From: Candidatus Hermodarchaeum yapensis
GTDB taxonomy: Archaea; Asgardarchaeota; Hermodarchaeia; Hermodarchaeales; Hermodarchaeaceae
NCBI GenBank assembly: GCA_016840405.1
Contig: JAEOSK010000009.1
Location: forward strand, 1 to 64,000
Reading direction: 5' to 3'
DNA: 64,000 nt
Part shown: piece by piece, positions 30,253 to 45,598 of the stretch
How positions within the stretch are numbered: position 1 is the stretch's first letter
Layout: the number at the start of each line of letters is the position of its first letter
Program-made: the position numbers and the translations under genes
The notes under the pieces: generated by a model
Told to the model about the DNA's origin: nothing
What the model saw: the letters and a program-made list of their open reading frames with translations, nothing else
Databases searched by the model: none

Positions 30253-30573
30253 TCACTCAGATTTTTCCCAGAGTTCAATGAACCGTCGGAGAGCTAGAGC
30301 ACGCAGATTCTCGATTTTATATCGAAATATCCTTATTCGGCCGAACGTTTTTTCCTGAACGAGTTGCGCACGTTCTAAAAACCGAAGATGCCTCCTTGTA
30401 GTACTGTGATTCAGCTGAGCTCTCCGGGCGATTTCAGAGATATTTAGCTCACCACACTCAGCCAACAGACGAATTATCTTGATACGTCCGCGAGAGGAGA
30501 AAAGAAGTTCAACTGGAATTAGTCGATTATCGGGAACCTGCTCAAGAATAGCTGTCTCAGGTCTATCAATCAC
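30253..30573 (-). CDS. ArsR-like winged HTH protein
   Basis: 'LFSSRGRIKII...LNISEIARRAQLNHSTTRRHL'; overlaps the cdc6 stop. Confidence 0.8.
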   Translation of the reverse strand: MIDRPETAILEQVPDNRLIPVELLFSSRGRIKIIRLLAECGELNISEIARRAQLNHSTTRRHLRFLERAQLVQEKTFGRIRIFRYKIENLRALALRRFIELWEKSE

Positions 30574-31778
30574 CTACTGCCACCAACTTTCTTTTTTTCA
30601 ATCTGTAGTTCAAGTTCGCGTTCTAACACTACGGCTGGAATATCAGGAAGCCCAATTAGAGTGGTTTTTCCGCGTTGACCAATGCCAGAAAGTTTCGAAG
30701 ATAGAATTCCTAACCCGACAAGATCTTGAACATACGTCCATATTTGGGTATGAGCGCGTGGCGTTTGGCCATTCTCTTCACAGACAAGCCGATACCGCGC
30801 TTCTAGCTCACCAGTTTTCACGTAGGCATCTTCTGAAGGTTTTAACAATCTGCATACGGCGAGCAGCAGAAATTTCTGGTGAAGCGATAAATCCAAGAGA
30901 ACCTCCCGTCGTATTTCAGGCGTGGTAAAAGCTTTAGCACTTCTCACGAACTCGGGTAAGATGCGAAGTACACCCTTCTCGTCCGCAGCTTTCCCTGCGT
31001 GATACAGAAGTGATAGAGCGTACCGTGCATCTCCTGATGTTCCTGCGATATCAGTGATTAGATCAATTGTGCTTTCAGGAACTGCTCCGTCGAGAACGGC
31101 TTCTTTTACTCGATAGTTCAGGATATCTCGAAGCTGGAGGGAGTTATAACGATTGAATTGTATTAGGTTCTTCTGTAGTGTACTCCAAGTACTTGGATCA
31201 AGAATGTAGCCAAAAAGTGGACTACGGCTTATACCTATTAATGATACTCTTTGTTGCGCGTTTAATTGGTCATCCACAGTACGTGATAAAAGATAAAGAA
31301 GTTCTTCTCCACATCGTTTGAGAAATACACCGAGTTCATCTAGCGTAATGAGCAAATACAGGTTGTTTGTTTCAATAAACTCCAAAATTATTGAAAGTAG
31401 TTCTTGTGTTGAGAGCCCCCGGAGAGGAATACCTGTTTGAAGCGCCGAGAGTATTTTATTTAGAATCATATATTCGGTTCGTTCACGTCGCGCATTAACA
31501 TGAATATACACTAAGTTGAATCCATGACCCTGAGCAATCTCTGTCAGTAGTTTTCCAAATAGCTTTGTTACAGAAGTCTTTCCCGAACCTGTATCACCGA
31601 CGAGTAATACCTTTTGTGAAACATGACCAGGTGCCTCGATTACCCCGCGAAACAGCTGGGTTAGCTTACGGAGATGCTCTTCACGATGGGGGAGGGTGGG
31701 AGGAACATAATCAATGGAAAGCTTCGCTTCATTGATGAATACAGATGGGCGTTGCAATTCATGCCGAATGATCTCCAT
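30570..31778 (-). CDS. cdc6: Orc1/Cdc6 family protein (second paralog)
   Basis: YVPPTLPHRE, GDTGSGKT, LDE, GDAR, C-terminal wHTH. Confidence 0.92.
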   Translation of the reverse strand: MEIIRHELQRPSVFINEAKLSIDYVPPTLPHREEHLRKLTQLFRGVIEAPGHVSQKVLLVGDTGSGKTSVTKLFGKLLTEIAQGHGFNLVYIHVNARRERTEYMILNKILSALQTGIPLRGLSTQELLSIILEFIETNNLYLLITLDELGVFLKRCGEELLYLLSRTVDDQLNAQQRVSLIGISRSPLFGYILDPSTWSTLQKNLIQFNRYNSLQLRDILNYRVKEAVLDGAVPESTIDLITDIAGTSGDARYALSLLYHAGKAADEKGVLRILPEFVRSAKAFTTPEIRREVLLDLSLHQKFLLLAVCRLLKPSEDAYVKTGELEARYRLVCEENGQTPRAHTQIWTYVQDLVGLGILSSKLSGIGQRGKTTLIGLPDIPAVVLERELELQIEKKKVGGSR

Positions 31779-32535: not shown

Positions 32536-32958
32536 ATGTCTGACCTTTGGTGGCCAAAATTCATCCGTAAACCCCGTCTAAAACTACGCGTGCCCCAGTT
32601 CCGAGGAGTGCACATGCCTTCAAAATGGATATTTTTCGCCATTGTACTAGGAATCTATTACTTCATAGTGAGTGGTAGTATTTTCAGTTTATCATATATT
32701 CCCCCACCTTTTGGCGGAACAGAAGAAGCGCTTAGGATCCTTTGGCCAGGACTTAGCCGTCAGTTCCTTCTCGAAGGAATCGTCGGAGGAATCATGTACC
32801 TAATCGGCTTCATTGGATTCTTCTTTATGTACCATAGTACAAGGCACATCTACCGACCACGCTACTCCCAAATGTTGCTAGCCATAGGCATTGTTCTAAT
32901 TCTCGTATCTTTCATTACTTCCCAATACATGGTTAATTACAAGATATTTGTAAGATAG
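32536..32958 (+). CDS. Oligosaccharyltransferase subunit, OSTC/DC2-like (OST3/OST6 family)
   Basis: P.LKL..P...HMPS, Y+..G.I, PP.FG and Q+.+EG pattern with 3 TMs, matching eukaryotic DC2 as I recall it. Confidence 0.75.
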   Translation: MSDLWWPKFIRKPRLKLRVPQFRGVHMPSKWIFFAIVLGIYYFIVSGSIFSLSYIPPPFGGTEEALRILWPGLSRQFLLEGIVGGIMYLIGFIGFFFMYHSTRHIYRPRYSQMLLAIGIVLILVSFITSQYMVNYKIFVR

Positions 32959-34240: not shown

Positions 34241-34312
34241 CTCGGTTAATATTACTTCAATGAATTCAATGAATTTGTTATTATTAATGATTACATAATA
34301 GGATTAGTATTA

Positions 34313-36268
34313 TCATACCTCTGAATAAAAAGATTTCAACTTGTCGAAGAGTACTCCATCGCTATCGTTGGAGCTTTTCAAATTTTCGATAATCCAACTG
34401 GGAAGCAAGCGACTACAAGATGGTGTTGCATAACGATCATCAAGAAACACTATTGCCCCACGATCATCAAGTCGACGAACAGAGCGCCCAGCTGCTTGCG
34501 AAGCACTCCTCAGTGCTGGCAGCTGATAACCGTAAAGTCGCCCTTTACCTGGAAATTGTTGTTCGAAATAATCAATACGGGTGGCTTCTATTGGGTTCGG
34601 TCTGGGATAAGGAACCCCTACAACGATTACTGTTTGCATTTCCCTTCCTGGATAATCTTCACCCTCACTGTTTCTCCCACTCAACACACCCAAGAGCGCT
34701 GCTCCTGCATCAGCCCTGGCTTTATAGGCTTGAATCATGGCATCATTTTCGTTTGATGAACTGCCTGGTTTCTCTACAAAGAGCTCTCGATTGATTTGTG
34801 AGGCAAGACCCGAATTAAGTAATGATTGTAAAACTGAATATGAGGGAACAAAGATTCCAACATTGTGAGTGGTAGCCTGGCATACCTCAACGATACGACG
34901 GGTTATCTTTGTAAACATTCTTGGTGTTCTGTATTTCATTGCTGTTGTTACACCAAGACTAATTACAGGAAAGATCTGATTAGGACTAAAAGGAGACGGC
35001 AAATTCAACACCTGTGTTCCCTTAGGTAATCCCACTAAGTCAATATGAGCACTTATTGGTTGCAATGTCCCTGAAAGGTGAACTGACGAATGACAAGCTT
35101 CAAAAACGGTAACCGTTGCACACCGTGGGTCTAGCGCAATTAGCTCTAGACGAGCAGAGTTTCTCTTGGATTCATTTCTTACAATGAAATACGCGGAATC
35201 AGAACGGTGGAGAGAATTACTCCATTTGACAAAGAATCTGCCTAGTGAATAAATATAGCTTATTGGAGCCAAGCTTTCAGTCAAGAGCTTCTTTATCAGT
35301 TTGTCTCCAAGTTGTAACAACTTTGTAGAAAAAGTCTCTAAATCGTTAGACTTTATCGATTTTGAAATTTGAGTATTGAAAACTTTTGGATCTAATTTTA
35401 TTTCTTGCTCGGAGTGTGTTTCAAGTAGTTTCTGGATAACATGATCTAGTTTGTTACAGAATGTTACGACTGAGTGTAAGTCGTAGCGTTTTGCTTCCCT
35501 CCTTGCTTGACGAATGGAGTTAAGAGAAAGTTTAGCTGATGCCAATTCGACAGCTATCCGGGGGAGGTTATGGGCTTCATCTATGATGAGTATTGTATTT
35601 GAAAATGGTCGGGCGAAGGCCTCTAAAAATGATTGATGGATTTGGGGATCAAAAATCTGAAAATAGGTAGTTGCAACGACGGTAACAAAGGGTAATATCC
35701 GCTTTGTAAGTTCATAGGGACAAACCCGTTCTTTGAGGCATTTTTGACGTAGTTCCGACCCAGTTAGAGGTACCTTATAAAATTGAGTGTAATAATTCCG
35801 ATTTCTTTTTGTCTTCTTTAAGAGATTTTGATAAAATTCACATCGCCCTGCGAGTCTTAATTGAAAACAAATGAACATGGCCTGTTGGGCATTAGATGCA
35901 TATCTTTGAATCAAGGGATTCAAACAGGAAACAGCTCTCCCCCGTAGCACAACTCCGTTCAATCCTGTTGATTCTGAGATAAGCCGTAGTTCATGCATAA
36001 CCCGATCCAGTTGTTTGTGAGTACGGGCGATGTAGACAATGCCATAATTATTCGTTTTAAGGAGAGGAAGCACTCCTGACAATGCAGCGATTGTTTTACC
36101 AAACCCATTCGCGGCTTCGACACACAAGTGCGTTCCGACTGCTGCATATTCTTGAATGGCTCTGATAAGGGTTAGTTGACCTGGCCGAGGAGTCGAATAC
36201 GGAAAATAGGATGAAGCTGCATTAGCACACATTTGCCAAGTCCTCACAGATGAATATGTATCTACCAT
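34313..36268 (-). CDS. xpd: XPD/Rad3-like Fe-S DNA helicase
   Basis: R.GQ Q-motif, GFGKT, four Fe-S Cys, DEAH, SGTL, QAAGR. Confidence 0.9.
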   Translation of the reverse strand: MVDTYSSVRTWQMCANAASSYFPYSTPRPGQLTLIRAIQEYAAVGTHLCVEAANGFGKTIAALSGVLPLLKTNNYGIVYIARTHKQLDRVMHELRLISESTGLNGVVLRGRAVSCLNPLIQRYASNAQQAMFICFQLRLAGRCEFYQNLLKKTKRNRNYYTQFYKVPLTGSELRQKCLKERVCPYELTKRILPFVTVVATTYFQIFDPQIHQSFLEAFARPFSNTILIIDEAHNLPRIAVELASAKLSLNSIRQARREAKRYDLHSVVTFCNKLDHVIQKLLETHSEQEIKLDPKVFNTQISKSIKSNDLETFSTKLLQLGDKLIKKLLTESLAPISYIYSLGRFFVKWSNSLHRSDSAYFIVRNESKRNSARLELIALDPRCATVTVFEACHSSVHLSGTLQPISAHIDLVGLPKGTQVLNLPSPFSPNQIFPVISLGVTTAMKYRTPRMFTKITRRIVEVCQATTHNVGIFVPSYSVLQSLLNSGLASQINRELFVEKPGSSSNENDAMIQAYKARADAGAALLGVLSGRNSEGEDYPGREMQTVIVVGVPYPRPNPIEATRIDYFEQQFPGKGRLYGYQLPALRSASQAAGRSVRRLDDRGAIVFLDDRYATPSCSRLLPSWIIENLKSSNDSDGVLFDKLKSFYSEV

Positions 36269-36432
36269 AAAAACCTCATCACCTGTTCAGTTGTAATTTT
36301 TGATTCATTATACTTATTGAAATTATTGAAATCAATAATTTAGAAATTGGTGATAGCCGGGTGTTAACACCGACGCATTTTTGAGGTGCCATTTCAATTC
36401 GTATACAAAATTGTATCCATGGAGATAGCCAG

Positions 36433-36945
36433 TTGACCCAAAAAAACGAAGTAGAGGAGACGCGCTCTTGGTCTCGCAGAATGCAAGAAGACCCAGTTAC
36501 CCAATTGCTAGCAGAAAATAGCCACCTAACAAATGTGCAACTTGAAACACTCATCATAGACTATTTGCTGGATGGTTTTGGAGAGAAACGTATTGACTAT
36601 AAAACTAAAGCCACCTTACGAGATCCAAGACCTAGAACAAAGAAGCCTAAGGGGATTAGTCGGGGATCGTTCAACCGATCACTCGCCCAAGCCCGAAAGA
36701 ACGTATCAAAGTCGATTTTTACATTAGTTCTCCTAGGTTATTTAGGAATTCTGGAAACTCCATCACTCATGCAATATCAAGACCTCTCCGAAACTATTCG
36801 AAGTTATGCACGAGAATATGACAAGGTAGCCACAACTAAGGAAACTCCAACACCAACTCACCTCAGCTCCCTTAAGCAAACACAACACCGCATCATTGCC
36901 CTAATCGAAGCACTTGCCAAACCGCTTGCCCTGAAACCCGAATAA
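36433..36945 (+). CDS. Hypothetical protein with HTH-like segment
   Basis: 'ISRGSFNRSLAQARKNV' helix pattern; 170 aa. Confidence 0.65.
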   Translation: MTQKNEVEETRSWSRRMQEDPVTQLLAENSHLTNVQLETLIIDYLLDGFGEKRIDYKTKATLRDPRPRTKKPKGISRGSFNRSLAQARKNVSKSIFTLVLLGYLGILETPSLMQYQDLSETIRSYAREYDKVATTKETPTPTHLSSLKQTQHRIIALIEALAKPLALKPE

Positions 36946-36973
36946 GGAACTTTATTGAAAGCCAAAAAAATAG

Positions 36974-37573
36974 TTAGATTTCTGAAAATTTCATTTTTTC
37001 AGCCAAGATTGTTGCGACTGTTTCTCCAGTATCAGTACACTGAATGACATCCTGATTCTGAAGCACAAGGCCACTCTTTTCTAAATTGGTTATCGCTTGA
37101 TTGATATAGTCAGCATCGAAACCGAAGTTAAGAAGTTCATCGACTTGAATAACTCCTCCGAACCTTTTCAACATAAATAGGACTGAAAGATAACCCAATC
37201 TAGAAATGAGTTTACTAGCCATCAAAAGGTTGTCATCCTCAGCAACCGTCCAAATCGCTGAGGGCACCCAACCAATGAAGTTGTAATAATCGACTTCATC
37301 GAATTTGTGAAGCAATTCAAGTATAGGACCTTCTGTACCAGGTTGAACTCCTAATACGCTTTTTCCCAATTTAACAAACGGTAATTGATCCATAATGCCT
37401 GAATAATGATAAGTACGGGTAACTTCTTTGCCACCTTTTAGCAGCTGTTTAACTTGTTGGGTGTATCCATATAATTCTCGGAAAAAACGGGTCTTTCTAG
37501 ACTGGTTAGAGCCTTTAGGTTGCTTGAAATCAAATGAGACGATCCATAATCTCTTCGTGCCGCTTACTTGCAT
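36974..37573 (-). CDS. Cas2/VapD-like ferredoxin-fold domain fused to a wHTH (hypothetical)
   Basis: 'WIVSFDF...FFRELYG...KLGKSV' followed by a C-terminal wHTH; SD GGAGG before ATG 37573. Confidence 0.55.
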   Translation of the reverse strand: MQVSGTKRLWIVSFDFKQPKGSNQSRKTRFFRELYGYTQQVKQLLKGGKEVTRTYHYSGIMDQLPFVKLGKSVLGVQPGTEGPILELLHKFDEVDYYNFIGWVPSAIWTVAEDDNLLMASKLISRLGYLSVLFMLKRFGGVIQVDELLNFGFDADYINQAITNLEKSGLVLQNQDVIQCTDTGETVATILAEKMKFSEI

Positions 37574-37711
37574 CTTGCTTCCTCCGGAATTTGCCCAACA
37601 ATTAAACATAAGGTAGTGGATTCCCTAAAAGTTAAACTAAAGAAAATTAACTGAAAGGAATGACTTCAATAATTTCATTAATTTTATTGAAGTTATTTCT
37701 TTTTATGCTAT

Positions 37712-38080
37712 TTACGATTTGCGTTGAAGCTTTTCGAAGACCTCAGGAAAATCTGATTTTATCTTCGCCTCGAGTGCCTCTGCAATAAACCGCGATTTAC
37801 CACCAAACCCACCATATTTACCTTCTCCTGATTTTGTGGCAGCAATTGCCACATAATCCAAGGCGGCTTTGATCCACGCTGGAATGCTCGCACTTATAGT
37901 TCTGCGTCCTTCGTATTCACTTTCAATGCGTAAGCGTTTAAGACTTGAATCACCGACTCTTGATGATAATTCTTCTAACTCGATATCAGATGTTTTTTCT
38001 GCTGGTTTTTTTGATTCTTTTTTGGGTTTGGTTTCTTTTTCCTTCTTCAATCGTTCTCTTATCAGATCCGTAGCCGACAT
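37712..38080 (-). CDS. SegB-like ribbon-helix-helix DNA-binding protein
   Basis: Charged, flexible N-terminus (MSATDLI...) and C-terminal 'KSRFIAEALEAKIKSDFPEVF', resembling Sulfolobus SegB as recalled. Confidence 0.65.
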   Translation of the reverse strand: MSATDLIRERLKKEKETKPKKESKKPAEKTSDIELEELSSRVGDSSLKRLRIESEYEGRRTISASIPAWIKAALDYVAIAATKSGEGKYGGFGGKSRFIAEALEAKIKSDFPEVFEKLQRKS

Positions 38081-38092
38081 GATTTATTCACC

Positions 38093-39406
38093 TCACACAA
38101 ATGTGGAACCCTTGGTCCATAGTTCAGTAGCCTGAATACGTCCCGCTTCAGGACTGTAGATAAGGCCTTGTTTTTCAAATAGATCGAAATCCTCCAATAC
38201 GTTTTCCCAAGAGCTATCATGAATTTGTAGCCAGTCTTCAATTTCATCAAGTGATCTTGCAACAGAAAGGAAACTCAGAAGCTCAGTTTGAAATGAAGAA
38301 AATTCTGCTCTTGCCCGTTTTACCTCTTTTTGTACAAACCGTTGAACGTAGTTGAAGTCTATTTGATATGCTGATAGAATATGATCTAGCGTGTAACCAT
38401 CGTTTACAAGAACTTCAGCACCACGAACTGCATCCTGAAGACAGCGTAATAATAGCTCAAGCATAATCCCGGGATTACCCCCAGAATAACTGAAAATACC
38501 CTCTAGTGCTTCAACTGTATAGGGATACAGTAACTCTTTCACTGTATCAGACTCATAATCTACACTATCCTCCGAATTCGATTGCAGTTTGTCCATTGCA
38601 CCTTTGAGGTAGGCTATTCTCCAGAGCATGACTTTCATTGCACTTGATTTATTCATTCGACGCATATCGTAGATTTCAACGAACCGTCTTCGAATAGCAG
38701 ACTTGGTTCCATGACCTAAGGTTTCTCCAACTGATGAGAGTATTTCAAGAGTCTTAATAGCACTCTCGCCAACACGGGTAATTACTGCCAAGGCTAGGAC
38801 AACGTATCGACGTCCATCTCTGGTTTTGTCGTTTACCATTCGTAATAGCGTATCTACAATACGTACACGATTATCAGGTCTTTGGCGTTCTAATTGTCGA
38901 AATTCATCAATTAAGAAAACATATGAGGTTCCATTTTCTTCTGCATCCGTTCTTAATGCCAATAGTAAACGAGAAAGCCGTTTAGCAACTGAACCACTGC
39001 GTACGACACGAACACCAACTCTGTCAATTAGGAAATCACGCACAGTTTGTTCTCCAATGTTTGCATGAACCAGGTCATCAATTAAAGCATCAGCCGAACT
39101 AACACCTTCAAGTCTTATGGCCCGAATATTTGGTAGACGATTTAATGATTGCTGGATCATTTCTAAAAATGTGGTTTTTCCCGCGCCCAATGGACCAGAT
39201 ACGACCACACTAGCTGTTTGATTACGCAGATAGTTAACGGCTCTCTTTATTGCTAGGGCTTCCCCTTCTGGAACTACATACAGCTCGTCAGAATCAATGC
39301 CAAATAGCTCAATTCTCTCTGTTTTGAATCCCCATTTTGAAAGCATTTGTTGATCGAATTTTTGTGTTCGTTCGACTAATCGATCCAGCTCACTCAGTTT
39401 CATCAC
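38093..39406 (-). CDS. AAA+ ATPase with C-terminal wHTH
   Basis: GPLGAGKT, FLIDE, 'RRRF', 'YSGGNP'; 12 nt upstream of the SegB-like gene. Confidence 0.8.
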   Translation of the reverse strand: MMKLSELDRLVERTQKFDQQMLSKWGFKTERIELFGIDSDELYVVPEGEALAIKRAVNYLRNQTASVVVSGPLGAGKTTFLEMIQQSLNRLPNIRAIRLEGVSSADALIDDLVHANIGEQTVRDFLIDRVGVRVVRSGSVAKRLSRLLLALRTDAEENGTSYVFLIDEFRQLERQRPDNRVRIVDTLLRMVNDKTRDGRRYVVLALAVITRVGESAIKTLEILSSVGETLGHGTKSAIRRRFVEIYDMRRMNKSSAMKVMLWRIAYLKGAMDKLQSNSEDSVDYESDTVKELLYPYTVEALEGIFSYSGGNPGIMLELLLRCLQDAVRGAEVLVNDGYTLDHILSAYQIDFNYVQRFVQKEVKRARAEFSSFQTELLSFLSVARSLDEIEDWLQIHDSSWENVLEDFDLFEKQGLIYSPEAGRIQATELWTKGSTFV

Positions 39407-39521
39407 GCCTCAGTTATTTTGGAGAAATGTGGGTTCTGTATTATAAGGATTATTGATAGTATTAAAAACATAAAACTAGATAAATTTATTGAATTCATTG
39501 AAATTATTACAAAATCATGTG

Positions 39522-40121
39522 CTAAATTCGTGTAAATGCTATAATATCAATCTTAGTGACGATTCCCACAGGACGTCCTTGATCCTCTATTAATAATGCC
39601 TCAACGCCTGATGCGATTTTGGAGAATGCAAGTTCTACACTCTCGTTAATATCAATTGATGGAAAAGGCTCTTCCATTATTTCATTGACTGATAATGAGA
39701 AGACTCTCTGTGAGTCCATGACCATCAATTTTCGAAGTATAGTACCTTCACTAATACACCCAACAGATTTGTTCTTTTTAATGACAGGAAGTTGTGATAT
39801 GCCATGACGCCTCATCAGTATTACTGCACTTCGTACTTTGTCATTGGGGCTGACCCCGATTAATTGTTGCATCTTTGTAGTTTGGCCTTTCCATTTTAAC
39901 AGCTTTCGTAGACTTGGAGAAACCTGTTCTTGATCTTCGATTGCACTAAGAATTCGTTTAAGCGTAATAATGCTCGGATTCACTTGGCCGTTTTCTATTC
40001 GTGCAACTAAAGACTGACTAATCCCAACTCGAGTAGCAAGTTCTTCTTGCGTGAGCCCAACTTTCTTTCGGAGTTCTTGCAGTTCCTTTGGCGTTGGGAC
40101 ACGAAATTCACTCATCATCAA
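39522..40121 (-). CDS. XRE-HTH + CBS domain regulator
   Basis: LTQEELA...ISQSLVARIE.G; paired CBS domains (ISQLPV, GIVTKIDI). Confidence 0.9.
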   Translation of the reverse strand: MMMSEFRVPTPKELQELRKKVGLTQEELATRVGISQSLVARIENGQVNPSIITLKRILSAIEDQEQVSPSLRKLLKWKGQTTKMQQLIGVSPNDKVRSAVILMRRHGISQLPVIKKNKSVGCISEGTILRKLMVMDSQRVFSLSVNEIMEEPFPSIDINESVELAFSKIASGVEALLIEDQGRPVGIVTKIDIIAFTRI

Positions 40122-40207
40122 ACACTAACCGAAAGCATATACTACTTGATGATAACTCCAAAAGAATTAATACTTCGCTTTCGTCGGTTCAAAGGGAGTT
40201 GACGCCG

Positions 40208-42532
40208 ATGACTAATATTCAACAAGCAGAAATTCGTGTTGTCGGCGTTGTACAGGGAATTGGCTTCCGTCCATTTATCTATGCCCAAGCCACACAACGT
40301 AATTTGTTAGGATACGTTTTGAATACTGGAAATTCTGCTGTTTTGATAGTTGTAGAAGGCGATAAAAAGAAAATTATTGAATTCATTGAATCCATTGAAA
40401 AAGATAAACCATATCTTGCCGTAATTGACAGCATCCGCACAATATGGGGAACCCCAACCGGGAAATATACAAACTTTCAGATTCGAATTTCGAAGGACGA
40501 ACAAAAGGCGGGCGGTTCAGTAATTCCCGCTGATATTGCCGTTTGCGAAGATTGTATTAGAGACATGGCTAGTCCGAAGTCGAGACATTATCAATATCCA
40601 ATGACTTGTTGTGCTATTTGTGGTCCACGCTACACAACAATTACCAACACACCCTATGACCGAGAACGAACAACTATGAACGAGTTCCCCCTCTGCAAAG
40701 ATTGCGCAACAGAGTTCGACAATCCATTAGACCGCCGATACAACGCCCAAACCATTTGTTGCCCAATCTGTGGTCCCAAATTTTCACTATTAGAATCTGG
40801 TGGAGTATCCGTTATTGTCGATGACGTTTTCAAAGAAACGGTGAAGCTTCTGAACGAAGGAGCCATTATTGCCGTAAAAGGCTTAGGGGGTATACATCTT
40901 GCAGTTAGAGCTAATCTTGAAGAACCAACTCAACGACTTCGACAATTACGGAAAAAACCCAATAAACCCCTGGCCATAATGTCAACAAATCTCAAAGATA
41001 TTCGACAGTATGCAAAAGTAAATCAAGATGAAGAAAAGCTCTTGACCTCTTGGCGTCGACCGATAGTAGTCTTGGATCAAAAATCTCCTTTCCCACTATC
41101 CCCAGCACTAGCACCTGGATTGAATACAATTGGCGTAATGCTTCCTTATTCAGGAATCTATTTGCGATTATTTGAAGGCCTTGATGATCTCGCATTAGTG
41201 ATGACAAGCGCAAATCCTGTGGGATTACCGACCCTCATCCATGCAACCACCTTCCAAGAACAATTCATGAAAATGGCTGACTACTTCCTCACTCATGATC
41301 GTACTATATACCAACGATGTGATGACTCGGTTGTCATTCCAATTTATGACCAAGCACTTATTGTCCGTCGTTCAAGAGGCTATACTCCTGAACCTATTGA
41401 TACTGCCGATATTGGACCTCCAATTCTCGCTCTTGGAGCAATGGAAAAAAACACAGGAGCAATTTACCACAATAAACGAATCTATCTTACACAGCACATT
41501 GGCGATATTGATACAGTAGAGACAATGCAGTTCCTTCAAGAAAGCCTCACACATCTCCAACAACTTCTTCGAGTAAATACCTTTGATGCTATTGCCTGCG
41601 ATTTACATCCTGATTTTCTCACAACTCAATATGGCGAAAAGATATCTGATGAACACCAAGTTCCCCTTATCCGGGTACAACACCACCACGCACACCTTGC
41701 GGCACTATTAGCTGATCACCAACTCAAAGCGGATGAAGAAATCGTCGCTATCTGTTGCGATGGCGCAGGGTACGGTCCTGATGATACAATTTGGGGAGGC
41801 GAAATCCTCGTAGGTAACGCACAAAAGTACAAACGTGTAGGTCATCTGGAACAACAGCTCATGCCCGGTGGAGATCTTGCTGCTCGTTACCCGCTCCGTA
41901 TGCTCATCGGTATTCTGTCAAGGCATTATTCACAGGATCAATTATATGATCATTTCAAAGAAATTGCCACAAACACCTTACCACAAGGCACATCAGAATT
42001 GAGAATAGCACTCAAACAAGCGTACCAGAAAATCAATGCTCCGTTGACATCAAGTACAGGAAGAGTACTAGATTCACTTGCTGCACTCTTCCAAGTATGC
42101 TATACACGTTCATACGAAGGTGAGCCTGCCATCCGATTCGAGTCTTTTGCAAATTCGGGCTCAGCCAACTCCAAAATTAAATTACAGATTCCCAAGAACA
42201 GACAAGGTAACTTAACAATCTTAGATACTAGCAGCTTCATTAAGCAAATTATGGACTTGCAATCCGACTTTAAGACTCCGGATCTGGCATATGCTGCACA
42301 TCGCGCGCTTGGGTATGCATTGGCTGACACTGCTATTCAAGCAGCACAAAAACAAGGAATATCGAAAATCGGGTTTTCCGGAGGAGTTGCATACAACAAG
42401 ATTCTCACAAGAACTATACGAACAAATATTGAAGACCAAGGTCTTACGTTCCTAATGCACAACAAAGTTCCACCTGGTGACGCAGGAACATCTGTGGGTC
42501 AGGCTCTTGTAGCACGATCCATGATACAATAA
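40208..42532 (+). CDS. hypF: Carbamoyltransferase HypF
   Basis: GVVQGIGFRPF, CxxC zinc fingers, CDLHP, QHHHAH, PPGDAG. Confidence 0.95.
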   Translation: MTNIQQAEIRVVGVVQGIGFRPFIYAQATQRNLLGYVLNTGNSAVLIVVEGDKKKIIEFIESIEKDKPYLAVIDSIRTIWGTPTGKYTNFQIRISKDEQKAGGSVIPADIAVCEDCIRDMASPKSRHYQYPMTCCAICGPRYTTITNTPYDRERTTMNEFPLCKDCATEFDNPLDRRYNAQTICCPICGPKFSLLESGGVSVIVDDVFKETVKLLNEGAIIAVKGLGGIHLAVRANLEEPTQRLRQLRKKPNKPLAIMSTNLKDIRQYAKVNQDEEKLLTSWRRPIVVLDQKSPFPLSPALAPGLNTIGVMLPYSGIYLRLFEGLDDLALVMTSANPVGLPTLIHATTFQEQFMKMADYFLTHDRTIYQRCDDSVVIPIYDQALIVRRSRGYTPEPIDTADIGPPILALGAMEKNTGAIYHNKRIYLTQHIGDIDTVETMQFLQESLTHLQQLLRVNTFDAIACDLHPDFLTTQYGEKISDEHQVPLIRVQHHHAHLAALLADHQLKADEEIVAICCDGAGYGPDDTIWGGEILVGNAQKYKRVGHLEQQLMPGGDLAARYPLRMLIGILSRHYSQDQLYDHFKEIATNTLPQGTSELRIALKQAYQKINAPLTSSTGRVLDSLAALFQVCYTRSYEGEPAIRFESFANSGSANSKIKLQIPKNRQGNLTILDTSSFIKQIMDLQSDFKTPDLAYAAHRALGYALADTAIQAAQKQGISKIGFSGGVAYNKILTRTIRTNIEDQGLTFLMHNKVPPGDAGTSVGQALVARSMIQ

Positions 42533-42668
42533 GCATATTCAACAGTAGTTCGCTATTTTTCCACATTCTGAAACTCATTTATTTCATTGAATTCATTAAG
42601 TTCCAGTGGAAATTATCCACAACTAATATAAATAACCGTAAATTATCTAGACGTAGAGTTGTGGTATT

Positions 42669-42962
42669 ATGGCTGCTACCCGAACCACCCAACGAACACC
42701 CCACAGTACTCAAAAAACGAAACAACGTACCCGAACAACTACCCGTCCACCTGAGCCAGGCGACGTCAAAAGTCATATTACTAGCCTACTCCGAGATCAA
42801 GGTGCCTTAACGCGGGGAGAGATTACCGTCAGGACAGGGATCCCAAGAACAACTGTCTATGATACTCTAATGAATTTACTGATTTCCGGAACTGTTGAGA
42901 AGTATGTTGAACGAAACGGTAAGCGTGGTAGGCCCTCTGTATACTATCAACTGGTAGCTTAG
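42669..42962 (+). CDS. TrmB-like winged HTH protein
   Basis: 'TGIPRTTVYDTL' and 'RGRP' wing. Confidence 0.75.
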   Translation: MAATRTTQRTPHSTQKTKQRTRTTTRPPEPGDVKSHITSLLRDQGALTRGEITVRTGIPRTTVYDTLMNLLISGTVEKYVERNGKRGRPSVYYQLVA

Positions 42963-43335
42963 GAGACTAGGTATACCCCTTAATTTCCACTGGAACTGCT
43001 TTTTAGTCGGATTTTTTGTTACCCTTTCAAATAAGTGGAAAATGCGCAAAAACAACTTCTATACTATTAAAGAAAACGTGTTAGAGAAGGTAAACTATTA
43101 ATATAACAATAGTAGAAAACTACTGGGGAAGATTCTTCGAATTATATAAAAACAAGACCAAACTTTCTTTGTTCTTCGACTTCCAGTGGAAACAAAGGGG
43201 AGTGACAATTGATTCTATTTTTCCATTGATCTCTGAGGCCTTGTTACTTTGCCAATAGTAGATTAATTTTTTAAAGTTTATAACTATAGTTCATAATTTT
43301 TTTCCTATGAAATAAAAAGTTTGAAAGAAACTGTT

Positions 43336-43806
43336 TTAGACTTTTGTGGCCAGGATAGCTGCAATCTCTTCTGTTAAATCTTCGATTTTAACTCGATACT
43401 CGCGTTGGGCAGCTGATCCACGACGTGTAAGAGTGCCATTGTCATGCATTCTTTTAAGGTATTGTGAGGCGGTGGCTAGTCGTAGGGGTGGGTGAAAGGT
43501 TCTTTCATAGAGTTCTTGGATATCTTTGGAAGTGAACCATCCGTGACGACAGTGGCGAAGAGTGATATAGCGGACTTTTTGAAACACGGTCCAGGAATCC
43601 ACATCAGCTAGGGGTTGTATCTCAGTTGTGGGTTCGTGGGCTGGAACCTCGGTGCCGGATTGACTGAGGGCTGTGACCAGAGATTCGGTGATGGAAGAGG
43701 GTAATCCGTCTGTAAAAGTGATAGTTACGTCACAGGTTTTTCCTTCGATGGTAAGTCCTTCGATGGTAATCTTTTGTTTACGTTTTTTCATGGGAGGCTC
43801 ACCCAC
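43336..43806 (-). CDS. Winged HTH protein
   Basis: 'WFTSKDIQELY...LATASQYLKRM...G.L.R.G...REY'. Confidence 0.75.
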   Translation of the reverse strand: MGEPPMKKRKQKITIEGLTIEGKTCDVTITFTDGLPSSITESLVTALSQSGTEVPAHEPTTEIQPLADVDSWTVFQKVRYITLRHCRHGWFTSKDIQELYERTFHPPLRLATASQYLKRMHDNGTLTRRGSAAQREYRVKIEDLTEEIAAILATKV

Positions 43807-44362
43807 TGGTGACTAGCTGGCTCTCCATGTCCCCACTAGAGAGGCGTGTTCACAGTGATAAAAGTGTGACGGTGTGAAGAGTGGTTGTATTGTAGCACTG
43901 ATTATTTGCATGGTGCTGCTTACTTCTGTTGTATAATAAGCTAAAGCGTTCTTCTGCTTGTTCTGGTGTGTTATGAAAAATAAGGTGTCTCCGGTGTTCT
44001 TTTTACCTTTCAAGGATTTTCTCCATAGCCCGAGTGTGTTCACAGATTCTTCACGTGTTGATAATAATTTCTAAGAATCTAAGGCTTTATTGGATAGTTC
44101 CAGTGGAAACAAAGGGGTGAGTCTTTGTTGATTTGAAAATATACTAAATTTGGCTGTTTTTAAAAGAAAAAAGTGTTCTAAATCAGTTTATGATATTGAG
44201 AGTTCACAATTAACGCGCCAATTGTGAACAAATTAAACCTTGTTTATTGAAGAAGATAGTTAATAAGAGTTATTTCTGCGAAACCCTAATATTGGAGGTG
44301 CGTGCACTTCCAAAAGAAACGCTAGTATTTCCTATGGGAGCATTCTGGAGGAAATCTATTAA

Positions 44363-45598
44363 ATGGACGACCCACGGCCTTTGGACAGGATTTTTGAACG
44401 TTTTAGTACTGGCCCAACTCTTATTCGTGATCGTAAAGTTCTTTGGCATTCATATGTTCCAGATGACCTTCCACATCGTGAGGAACAGATTACACAAATC
44501 GGAAGCATATTAGCGACGGGGTTGAAAGGGAGTCGTCCATCAAACGTTTTTGTTTATGGTAAACCGGGAACTGGAAAAACAGCAGTGACTCGGTATGTTC
44601 TTCGGGAACTAACTACTAAGTTTGGTGAACTACAGTTACCCTTCAAAGCTGTGTATTTGAATTGCCGGAATGTGGATACAGATTATCGTGTATTGGCGCG
44701 CATCTGTGCGGAGTTGGGTCAGAAAGTTCCGTTTACAGGGCTGCCAACTGATGAAGTTCATTCACGCTTGGTCGAGTTGCTAGAAAGCCAAGATCTCTTA
44801 ACCATTATTGTACTCGATGAAATCGACCGTTTAGTTTTGAAGAGCGGAGATGACACGCTCTATAAGTTGACTCGAATTAATTATGATCTTACGAGTGCTC
44901 GTGTCAGTTTGATTGGAATATCCAACGATCTTCGCTTCCCTGAGTATCTTGACCCTCGGGTGTTGAGTAGCTTAAGTGAGGAGAAGGTCATTTTTCATCC
45001 TTACACCGCATTACAGCTACAAGATATTCTTCGGCGTCGAAGTTCTCATGGACTGAAAAATGGTATTTTAGAAGAACCAGGAGTAATCAACCTATGTGCT
45101 GCTTTGGCTGCACGTGAAGAAGGTGACGCACGACGGGCTCTTGATCTCTTTCGTGTAGCAGTAGAAATTGCTGAACGTGAGGGAAGTAAAGAGGTAAAAG
45201 TTGACCATGTTGAAAAGGCACGTTTAAGCATTGAACGTGATACTGTTCTTGAAGTACTAAGGACATTACCCGTGCAACAGAAACTTGTTCTTTATGCGGT
45301 GTATGTATTAGAACGTCATAAACATCCACATCCAGTTACAGGAGAGGTGCAAGATGTGTACGGTGAATTTTGTTCGCAGTTGGGTATGGATCCTTTAACC
45401 CAGCGTCGGGTTAGCGATCTCATCAATGATCTTGATGCCATTGGAGTAGTTAATGCTAAGGTTGTAAGTAAAGGACGATATGGACGAACCAAAATTATCC
45501 GGTTGAGTGTCCCGAAAACAATGATTGCAGATGTATTAGAACGAGATAGTCGAATTAAGGCGCTATCAAGTTATGTTCCAGCAACCCCGGGTAAATAG
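44363..45598 (+). CDS. cdc6: Orc1/Cdc6 replication initiator (origin-associated)
   Basis: YVPDDLPHRE, GKPGTGKT, LDEID, GDARRA, SKGRYGRT. Confidence 0.96.
   Translation: MDDPRPLDRIFERFSTGPTLIRDRKVLWHSYVPDDLPHREEQITQIGSILATGLKGSRPSNVFVYGKPGTGKTAVTRYVLRELTTKFGELQLPFKAVYLNCRNVDTDYRVLARICAELGQKVPFTGLPTDEVHSRLVELLESQDLLTIIVLDEIDRLVLKSGDDTLYKLTRINYDLTSARVSLIGISNDLRFPEYLDPRVLSSLSEEKVIFHPYTALQLQDILRRRSSHGLKNGILEEPGVINLCAALAAREEGDARRALDLFRVAVEIAEREGSKEVKVDHVEKARLSIERDTVLEVLRTLPVQQKLVLYAVYVLERHKHPHPVTGEVQDVYGEFCSQLGMDPLTQRRVSDLINDLDAIGVVNAKVVSKGRYGRTKIIRLSVPKTMIADVLERDSRIKALSSYVPATPGK

Follow-up and report, generated by a model that had tools for sequence, protein, structure and literature searches.

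The origin region of Candidatus Hermodarchaeum yapensis carries two adjacent genes, encoding an AAA+ ATPase and a small tailed protein, that lie among arrays of a short palindromic repeat. Judged from sequence, this locus is probably a partition or origin-organising system whose motor belongs to an undescribed class. A more specific proposal, for which we consider the chances about even, is that it represents a partition system native to several Asgard classes, in which an ExeA/TnsC/Orc-like AAA+ ATPase would act with a SegB/ParG-like ribbon-helix-helix (RHH) adaptor on an origin-side centromere of phased repeats, and which would be interchangeable with ParA-ParB. A first-pass annotation of the window (the whole 64,000-nucleotide stretch of DNA that was analysed) had named the locus a candidate segregation system, and the triad of ATPase, tailed adaptor and cis-site on which that idea depends is well supported by the conserved gene pair and its arrays. 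Segregation itself is what we infer from this triad and from the ParA and ParB genes that occupy the same slot in another Asgard family. The two genes are as follows.

38093 to 39406, minus strand: AAA+ ATPase with an ExeA/TnsC/Orc1-like core and a C-terminal winged helix, assigned from motifs, a structure model and profiles
37712 to 38080, minus strand: 122-amino-acid tailed protein, a probable RHH DNA binder or adaptor, with an N-terminal helix motif, a charged linker and a C-terminal part of 65 amino acids

Both open reading frames lie as first annotated, with a 12-nucleotide spacer from the ATPase gene to the small gene that follows it, and a Shine-Dalgarno-like GAGGTGA overlaps the ATPase stop codon. 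The ATPase frame encodes 437 amino acids when read from a GTG and 436 when read from the ATG at 39403. A bacterial promoter scan gave results at chance level. In the RNA libraries of three studies, contigs carry short fragments related to both genes, from which level, strand and co-transcription are not readable.

The setting of the gene pair is given by three further features.

42601 to 44117, no strand: oriC region, with ORBs at 42601 (plus), 42984 (minus), 43181 (plus) and 44098 (plus)
44363 to 45598, plus strand: origin-linked Orc1/Cdc6 initiator
36433 to 36945, plus strand: uncharacterised, origin-linked gene for 170 amino acids that often adjoins the ATPase module and is also found where ParA-ParB replaces the module

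Only four exact ORB cores are present in the 2.7-Mb assembly (77 contigs, 86% complete), all of them at 42601-44109 and upstream of cdc6, and this cluster coincides with the minimum of cumulative GC skew in the window. The region from 42601 to 44117 is therefore very likely a replication origin. The ATPase gene starts 3.2 kb from the first ORB, in agreement with the initial estimate of about 3 kb. Neighbouring genes in the window encode two ordinary Orc1/Cdc6 proteins, RFC, the PolD small subunit and XPD. The second Cdc6 paralogue (30253-31778, minus strand) is approximately 31% identical to the origin-linked Cdc6, lies 12 kb from the origin and is overlapped by an ArsR-like HTH gene. Two small winged-helix-type genes are located between the ORBs (43336-43806, minus strand, and 42669-42962, plus strand), and the member of this pair that encodes 156 amino acids is a neighbour of cdc6 in almost every Asgard locus read. 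A genus-conserved membrane protein of 140 amino acids (32536-32958, plus strand) resembles, by eye, accessory subunits of oligosaccharyltransferase.

The gene for the 170-amino-acid protein has matches in 60 of 151 Asgard genomes. Most loci fetched by it are origin regions, in which its neighbours are either the ATPase module or ParA-ParB, and it is a possible third component of the module. A gene for 211 amino acids (36974-37609, minus strand) lies downstream of the module and encodes a protein with a C-terminal winged helix and an N-terminus that appears, by eye, to be ferredoxin- or Cas2-like. Its identity within the genus is 47-55%, and since neither the Ranarchaeia nor the Asgardarchaeia loci contain it, it is not a core part of the module.

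The ATPase motifs initially reported (the classical Walker A sequence GPLGAGKT, Walker B with LIDE, RRRF and GGNP) are present and are conserved among 29 homologues with identities as low as 53%. The Walker A lysine and Walker B acids are retained, and R240, which is invariant across the wider family, is likely to be the arginine finger of the ATPase. The position of the sensor-II arginine is occupied by glycine (GNPG) in this subfamily, and by arginine in all other Asgard homologues aligned. Across the genus, identity of the ATPase is 82-98%, exceeding the conservation of hypF and XPD. The N-terminus of the protein (39406-39370, minus strand) reads SELD followed by hydrophobic residues; this stretch is conserved in the subfamily and is similar to the start of SegB, where the first residues bind SegA, a likeness that may be due to chance.

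A structure model of the ATPase (pLDDT 81.5) contains an AAA+ core, a helical lid and the C-terminal winged helix that had been annotated, formed by three helices and a hairpin. The best matches of this model among solved structures are Orc1/Cdc6 proteins (Z up to 18.3, at 14-15% identity), with the top matches, to Orc1, Cdc6 and ORC subunits, at Z 16-18, archaeal ATPases at Z 16-17 and TnsC/MuB at Z 14-15.6. The nearest shapes in the Atlas are a Thorarchaeota cluster of 324 amino acids and ExeA/MshM-type proteins. The description of the protein as an ExeA/Orc-like AAA+ ATPase thus stands with a refinement: its structure matches Orc1/Cdc6, whereas its sequence is closer to the ExeA type than to Orc1. 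Profile comparison for the wider ATPase family gives a best E value of 1.3e-22 with ExeA-type proteins versus 2.2e-9 with orc1/cdc6, and an ExeA-type profile is the top family for 12 of 19 homologues. This particular ATPase scores 14.2 bits against the ExeA-type (TIGR03015-like) profile, for which the cut-off is 324.5, and 13.4 bits against the Orc1/Cdc6 profile TIGR02928, for which it is 181; profiles of the Cdc6 lid and of WHD_Cdc6 yield no match.

The structural likeness raises the prospect of a role in origin control, by which the small protein, bound to the arrays, would bring in an Orc-like ATPase that licenses, blocks or times the neighbouring origin or loads a ring protein there. Besides the structure matches, this explanation draws on the Orc1-like combination of AAA+ core and winged helix in this subfamily, on the linkage to cdc6 across classes and on an array that lies directly against an ORB in the majority of genus members. 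It is the main rival to partition, and we nevertheless consider it unlikely, given that the sequence of the family is nearer to the ExeA type, that the winged helix is absent from most Asgard homologues, that two ordinary Cdc6 genes are already present, that the arrays extend 8 kb from the origin on one side and that a partition cassette occupies the slot in family f12. Bacterial ParA/Soj also regulates initiation.

The likeness to TnsC/MuB bears on a different alternative, namely that the locus is the relic of a mobile element, a defence module or a toxin-antitoxin unit with the 211-amino-acid protein as toxin. Faint PADLOC matches, confined to the P-loop or to a short stretch, and a patchy distribution point in the same direction. 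However, the ATPase gene is single-copy, more conserved within the genus than most of its neighbours and fixed among core replication genes. No transposase, integrase or element ends are linked to it, and core replication and housekeeping genes flank all loci read. The putative toxin, moreover, is missing from two of the lineages that carry the locus, and we judge this explanation very improbable.

The small protein has the features attributed to it on first reading, including the MSATDL start, the charged linker and the quoted C-terminal ending, except that the gap between EALE and the proline is seven residues instead of six. In its homologues the N-terminal helix motif, which is short, and the final 65 residues are conserved, and the linker varies. 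The strand reads TISASIP, which is invariant in these homologues, and the predicted order of elements is helix-strand-helix-helix-helix. The protein is a probable RHH DNA binder and adaptor. Its monomer model has a pLDDT of only 57, with low confidence in the linker, and fold searches with this low-confidence model gave nothing above Z 4.4, which speaks neither for nor against the fold. Sequence searches against PDB, Pfam, NCBIfam and PHROGs found no significant family, and a profile search of 1.8 billion representatives recovered only three clusters, all from its own subfamily. An Atlas feature search (0.91-0.92) returned unnamed bacterial proteins of 100 amino acids, a centromere-binding ParB-C family (45% of members) and an RHH antitoxin family, which we treat as a lead only. 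Predicted as a complex with two copies of the small protein, the ATPase scores 0.14, compared with a mark of 0.32, a result that bears neither way on binding.

The small protein had also been called SegB-like. For comparison, true SegB genes were fetched from metagenomes by the published C-terminal signature, and one of these matches PDB 7DUV at 4e-56. (Another metagenomic SegB, at L089:88-1005, is fused to repeated C2H2-like zinc-finger motifs.) HHalign of the small protein with true SegB gives a probability of 78% (P 1.8e-5) and a score of 29.3, compared with no more than 21.6 when the columns were shuffled 200 times, although the match is weak and spans only the last two helices (27-37 columns). 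The matched stretch includes a Ser-Arg pair, and in SegB the Ser-Arg pair contacts the DNA backbone (PMC8682754). The signature by which the SegB family is defined (D/N-P-K/R-I-G/T-V/L-W-S-Y/P) is absent from the small protein, the SegB profile gives an E value of 1.7 and BLASTP against true SegB finds no match. The 13-bp SegB motif occurs once in the window with two mismatches, versus 1.2 expected, and the adjacent gene encodes an AAA+ protein in place of the ParA-like neighbour (SegA) that accompanies SegB. What survives of the SegB assignment is therefore the architecture and a profile match above shuffle level. Taking this weak match together with the differing strand, the absent signature and the unenriched site, we conclude that the small protein is not a member of the SegB family, of which it may be a remote relative, and that it probably functions in a SegB-like way.

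It has been considered whether an ordinary SegAB system operates with a SegA encoded elsewhere, as the order of elements, the weak profile match and the 86% completeness of the assembly would allow. This seems scarcely credible, since no SegA/Soj, SegB or ParB was found in the assembly and its deviant-Walker proteins look MinD-like, CooC-like, Mrp, ArsA/GET3 or ferredoxin-linked, and a small RHH-like gene follows none of them. A search of 301 Asgard genomes with the SegB profile also yielded no match, and the SegB site is no more frequent than chance predicts.

The repeats consist of tandem 9-bp palindromes, and six arrays are located on one side of the origin.

34256 to 34282, no strand: tandem array of a 9-bp palindrome with unit consensus TTCAWTGAA, between XPD and a radB-like gene
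36313 to 36339, no strand: array between XPD and the gene for 170 amino acids
37665 to 37691, no strand: array just downstream of the small gene
39485 to 39511, no strand: array upstream of the ATPase gene, with a weaker pair at 39449-39466
40373 to 40399, no strand: array inside the hypF coding sequence, under constraint at the DNA level
42574 to 42600, no strand: array that abuts the first ORB

Phased repeats had been reported to bracket the operon, and the arrays at 37665-37691 and 39485-39511 do so, within a field that is wider than originally noted. With a matrix trained only on flanks from other genomes, seven strong tandem arrays are found in the whole assembly, six of which fall within 34256-42600 (8.3 kb) at spacings of 0.9-2.2 kb. 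No array appears in 20 locally shuffled genomes, and the window holds 11 matches to the phased repeat versus 0.45 expected. Exact two-unit matches number 2-8 in each of 15 genus genomes, mostly at the locus, whereas a control pattern yields 0-1. Among 283 nine-codon windows compared over nine genomes, synonymous variation is lowest at the array within hypF (0.09-0.14 versus a median of 0.59), and selection therefore acts on the DNA itself at this site. Repeated centromere-like cis-sites, as looked for in partition systems generally, are therefore present at the locus. The seventh array (G000 C63:11339) lies on another contig, where an acetyltransferase-like gene diverges from an operon that encodes a 274-amino-acid protein together with a small GTPase; it lies between the two and is kept in at least seven relatives (L090-L093 and L095-L097).

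Five of the six arrays at the locus are intergenic and 16-100 nucleotides from start codons, and such positions would also suit a transcriptional regulon, in which the small protein represses its own operon and neighbouring DNA-metabolism genes and the ATPase modulates this repression. The distant array between two divergent genes fits this idea, as does the persistence of arrays near the small gene after loss of the ATPase. Against it, the selected array of hypF is 165 nucleotides inside the gene, some arrays of relatives lie between convergent gene ends, and arrays stay with the locus rather than with particular genes when gene order changes. We regard this explanation as improbable, somewhat more so than origin control; autoregulation is expected in partition cassettes too.

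The candidate partition locus is conserved beyond this genome, and the expectation that pair and origin proximity would recur in relatives was borne out: the gene pair is present in all 14 genus genomes and in Ranarchaeia. In Ranarchaeia and related loci the ATPase is 53-56% identical and has other neighbours, and five to seven arrays, some in coding sequence, surround the pair (two sites per locus belonged to the training set of the matrix). An NTPase gene beside a small gene, whose product would bind DNA, is thus a conserved arrangement. One genus genome contains a second, Thorarchaeia-type ATPase copy at a contig edge (G008 C249:2-958), probably through bin contamination. The ATPase is unmatched in sister genus g2, where this absence is uninformative, since three of four genomes also lack a cdc6 match and the fourth breaks at either side of the locus.

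The ATPase is missing from three Asgardarchaeia-type loci in which the small gene is still found beside the origin. One of these loci comes from a 93%-complete genome that contains no match to the ATPase at all. One to four arrays remain at these loci. The N-terminal motif of the small protein is kept in every ATPase-adjacent partner and is lost or degenerate in all three ATPase-less loci, representing one or two events. Because arrays are retained and the motif is lost, it appears that the arrays are linked to the small protein, and that the tail is linked to the ATPase. In two of these lineages a basic gene for 111 amino acids lies on the opposite strand in place of the lost ATPase (L030:9306-9641, L065:10655-10963 and L068:2273-2668).

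A narrow ATPase profile searched against 400 genomes recovers only the own genus, and the wider family was recovered only by direct reading of origin loci. Homologous ATPases of 285-377 amino acids, without the winged helix, are encoded in 17 of 20 origin-region loci from other families (HHalign 98.3%, E 1.2e-14), each followed by a tailed protein of 92-160 amino acids with a different strand sequence. In every locus read, the distant homologues lie by the origin with a tailed partner and often with another repeat. In family f6 (Thorarchaeia by inference) the field at the loci is built from another phased 9-bp palindrome, and one other lineage has a third motif; a simple search found no phased repeat in several smaller Asgard lineages. 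A joint profile detects the ATPase, almost always once per genome, in 110 of 301 Asgard genomes from eight families (one outside the alignment). Common ancestry of all partners is not established, given that HHalign comparisons among partner subfamilies are mostly near shuffle level.

In all three genomes of family f12 (two of them single-contig) the ATPase is absent genome-wide, and genes for ParA and ParB adjoin cdc6 and the 170-amino-acid gene. This occupation of the same slot supports a role in partition. Points that weigh against this reading are that the swap is a single evolutionary event, that no parS-like repeat was found beside the ParA-ParB genes and that both the small gene and some arrays persist in a 93%-complete genome without the ATPase. 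A ParB-HTH gene is absent in five carriers of the ATPase and also in four non-carriers, and neither this ATPase nor an f12-type ParB occurs in most of the Asgard families searched (191 of 301 genomes). Regulation of genes or of the origin also fits, given the five intergenic arrays, the array abutting an ORB and the best structure matches to Orc1/Cdc6, and both kinds of regulation could coexist with partition.

We propose that the three-part system marks and handles origin-proximal DNA for segregation or organisation, with every biochemical step put forward by analogy. Dimers of the small protein would bind the tandem palindromes via the RHH strand (TISAS), with two to three dimers per array, and the six arrays would form a centromere-like patch over 8 kb. 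The ATP-bound ATPase might, like TnsC and MuB, form oligomers on DNA irrespective of its sequence. Contact with the N-terminal helix of the small protein would then stimulate hydrolysis and release; this helix perhaps lends an arginine, as the ATPase subfamily lacks that of sensor II. Clearing or pulling of the ATPase near arrays could move or compact sister origin regions in the manner of a ParA-like ratchet. There is precedent in MuB, an AAA+ ATPase that is removed from DNA by its site-bound partner in a diffusion ratchet (PMC7350765).

A system of two proteins and a defined site is amenable to study in vitro and on a plasmid. Natural controls are provided by lineages with other site sequences, lineages without the ATPase and one with ParA-ParB. 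If the locus serves origin control rather than segregation, it would still represent a regulator of archaeal replication that is directed to specific sites and has not been described before.

Partition systems are classed by motor as ParA, actin-like or tubulin-like, and we know of none with an AAA+ ATPase of this class. A literature search, covering mainly openly available papers, found no description of the ATPase-RHH module. The closest system in layout is SegAB-segS of Sulfolobales (PMC8682754, PMC12284271, bioRxiv 10.1101/2025.04.15.649018), in which an ATPase gene is likewise followed by one for a protein of approximately 110-120 amino acids, and palindromic sites, some intragenic, lie round the operon and near the origin. 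SegB shares with the small protein a short conserved N-terminus, a variable charged linker and a C-terminal part that is predicted, in the small protein, to have the same helix-strand-three-helix order. SegB sites gather round segAB near oriC1 (PMC12284271), and SegA is stimulated by the SegB N-terminus (PMC8682754). In contrast to SegA, which is a ParA, the ATPase described here is an AAA+ protein with a classical Walker A motif, an arginine finger and a winged helix, and the site is a tandem 9-bp palindrome rather than the 13-bp SegB motif.

Type Ib plasmid cassettes (ParF-ParG of TP228 and delta-omega of pSM19035) and HpaAB of Haloferax (PMC13722703) similarly combine an ATPase, a small tailed protein, of RHH type there and probably here, and short phased-repeat arrays flanking the genes. 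These systems use a deviant-Walker ParA and reside on plasmids or secondary chromosomes, whereas the present locus is chromosomal and origin-linked, and its AAA+ ATPase lacks the deviant Walker A motif (KGGxGKT) of type I partition. TnsC/MuB and ExeA-family ATPases share the AAA+ fold class, and the ATPase has an ExeA-like N-terminal segment, but here the vicinity contains neither a transposase or transposon ends nor secretion genes, the partner is probably of RHH type and the locus occupies a fixed, single-copy position by the origin. Archaeal Orc1/Cdc6 proteins have in common with the ATPase the AAA+ core, lid, winged helix and origin linkage. They differ from it in that the ATPase falls below all profile cut-offs, is missing the sensor-II arginine, has a fixed small partner gene and has homologues in other Asgard classes without a winged helix. 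The locus is thus not a member of SegAB, ParA systems, Orc1/Cdc6 or transposon ATPases: the motor is not a known one, and the layout is.
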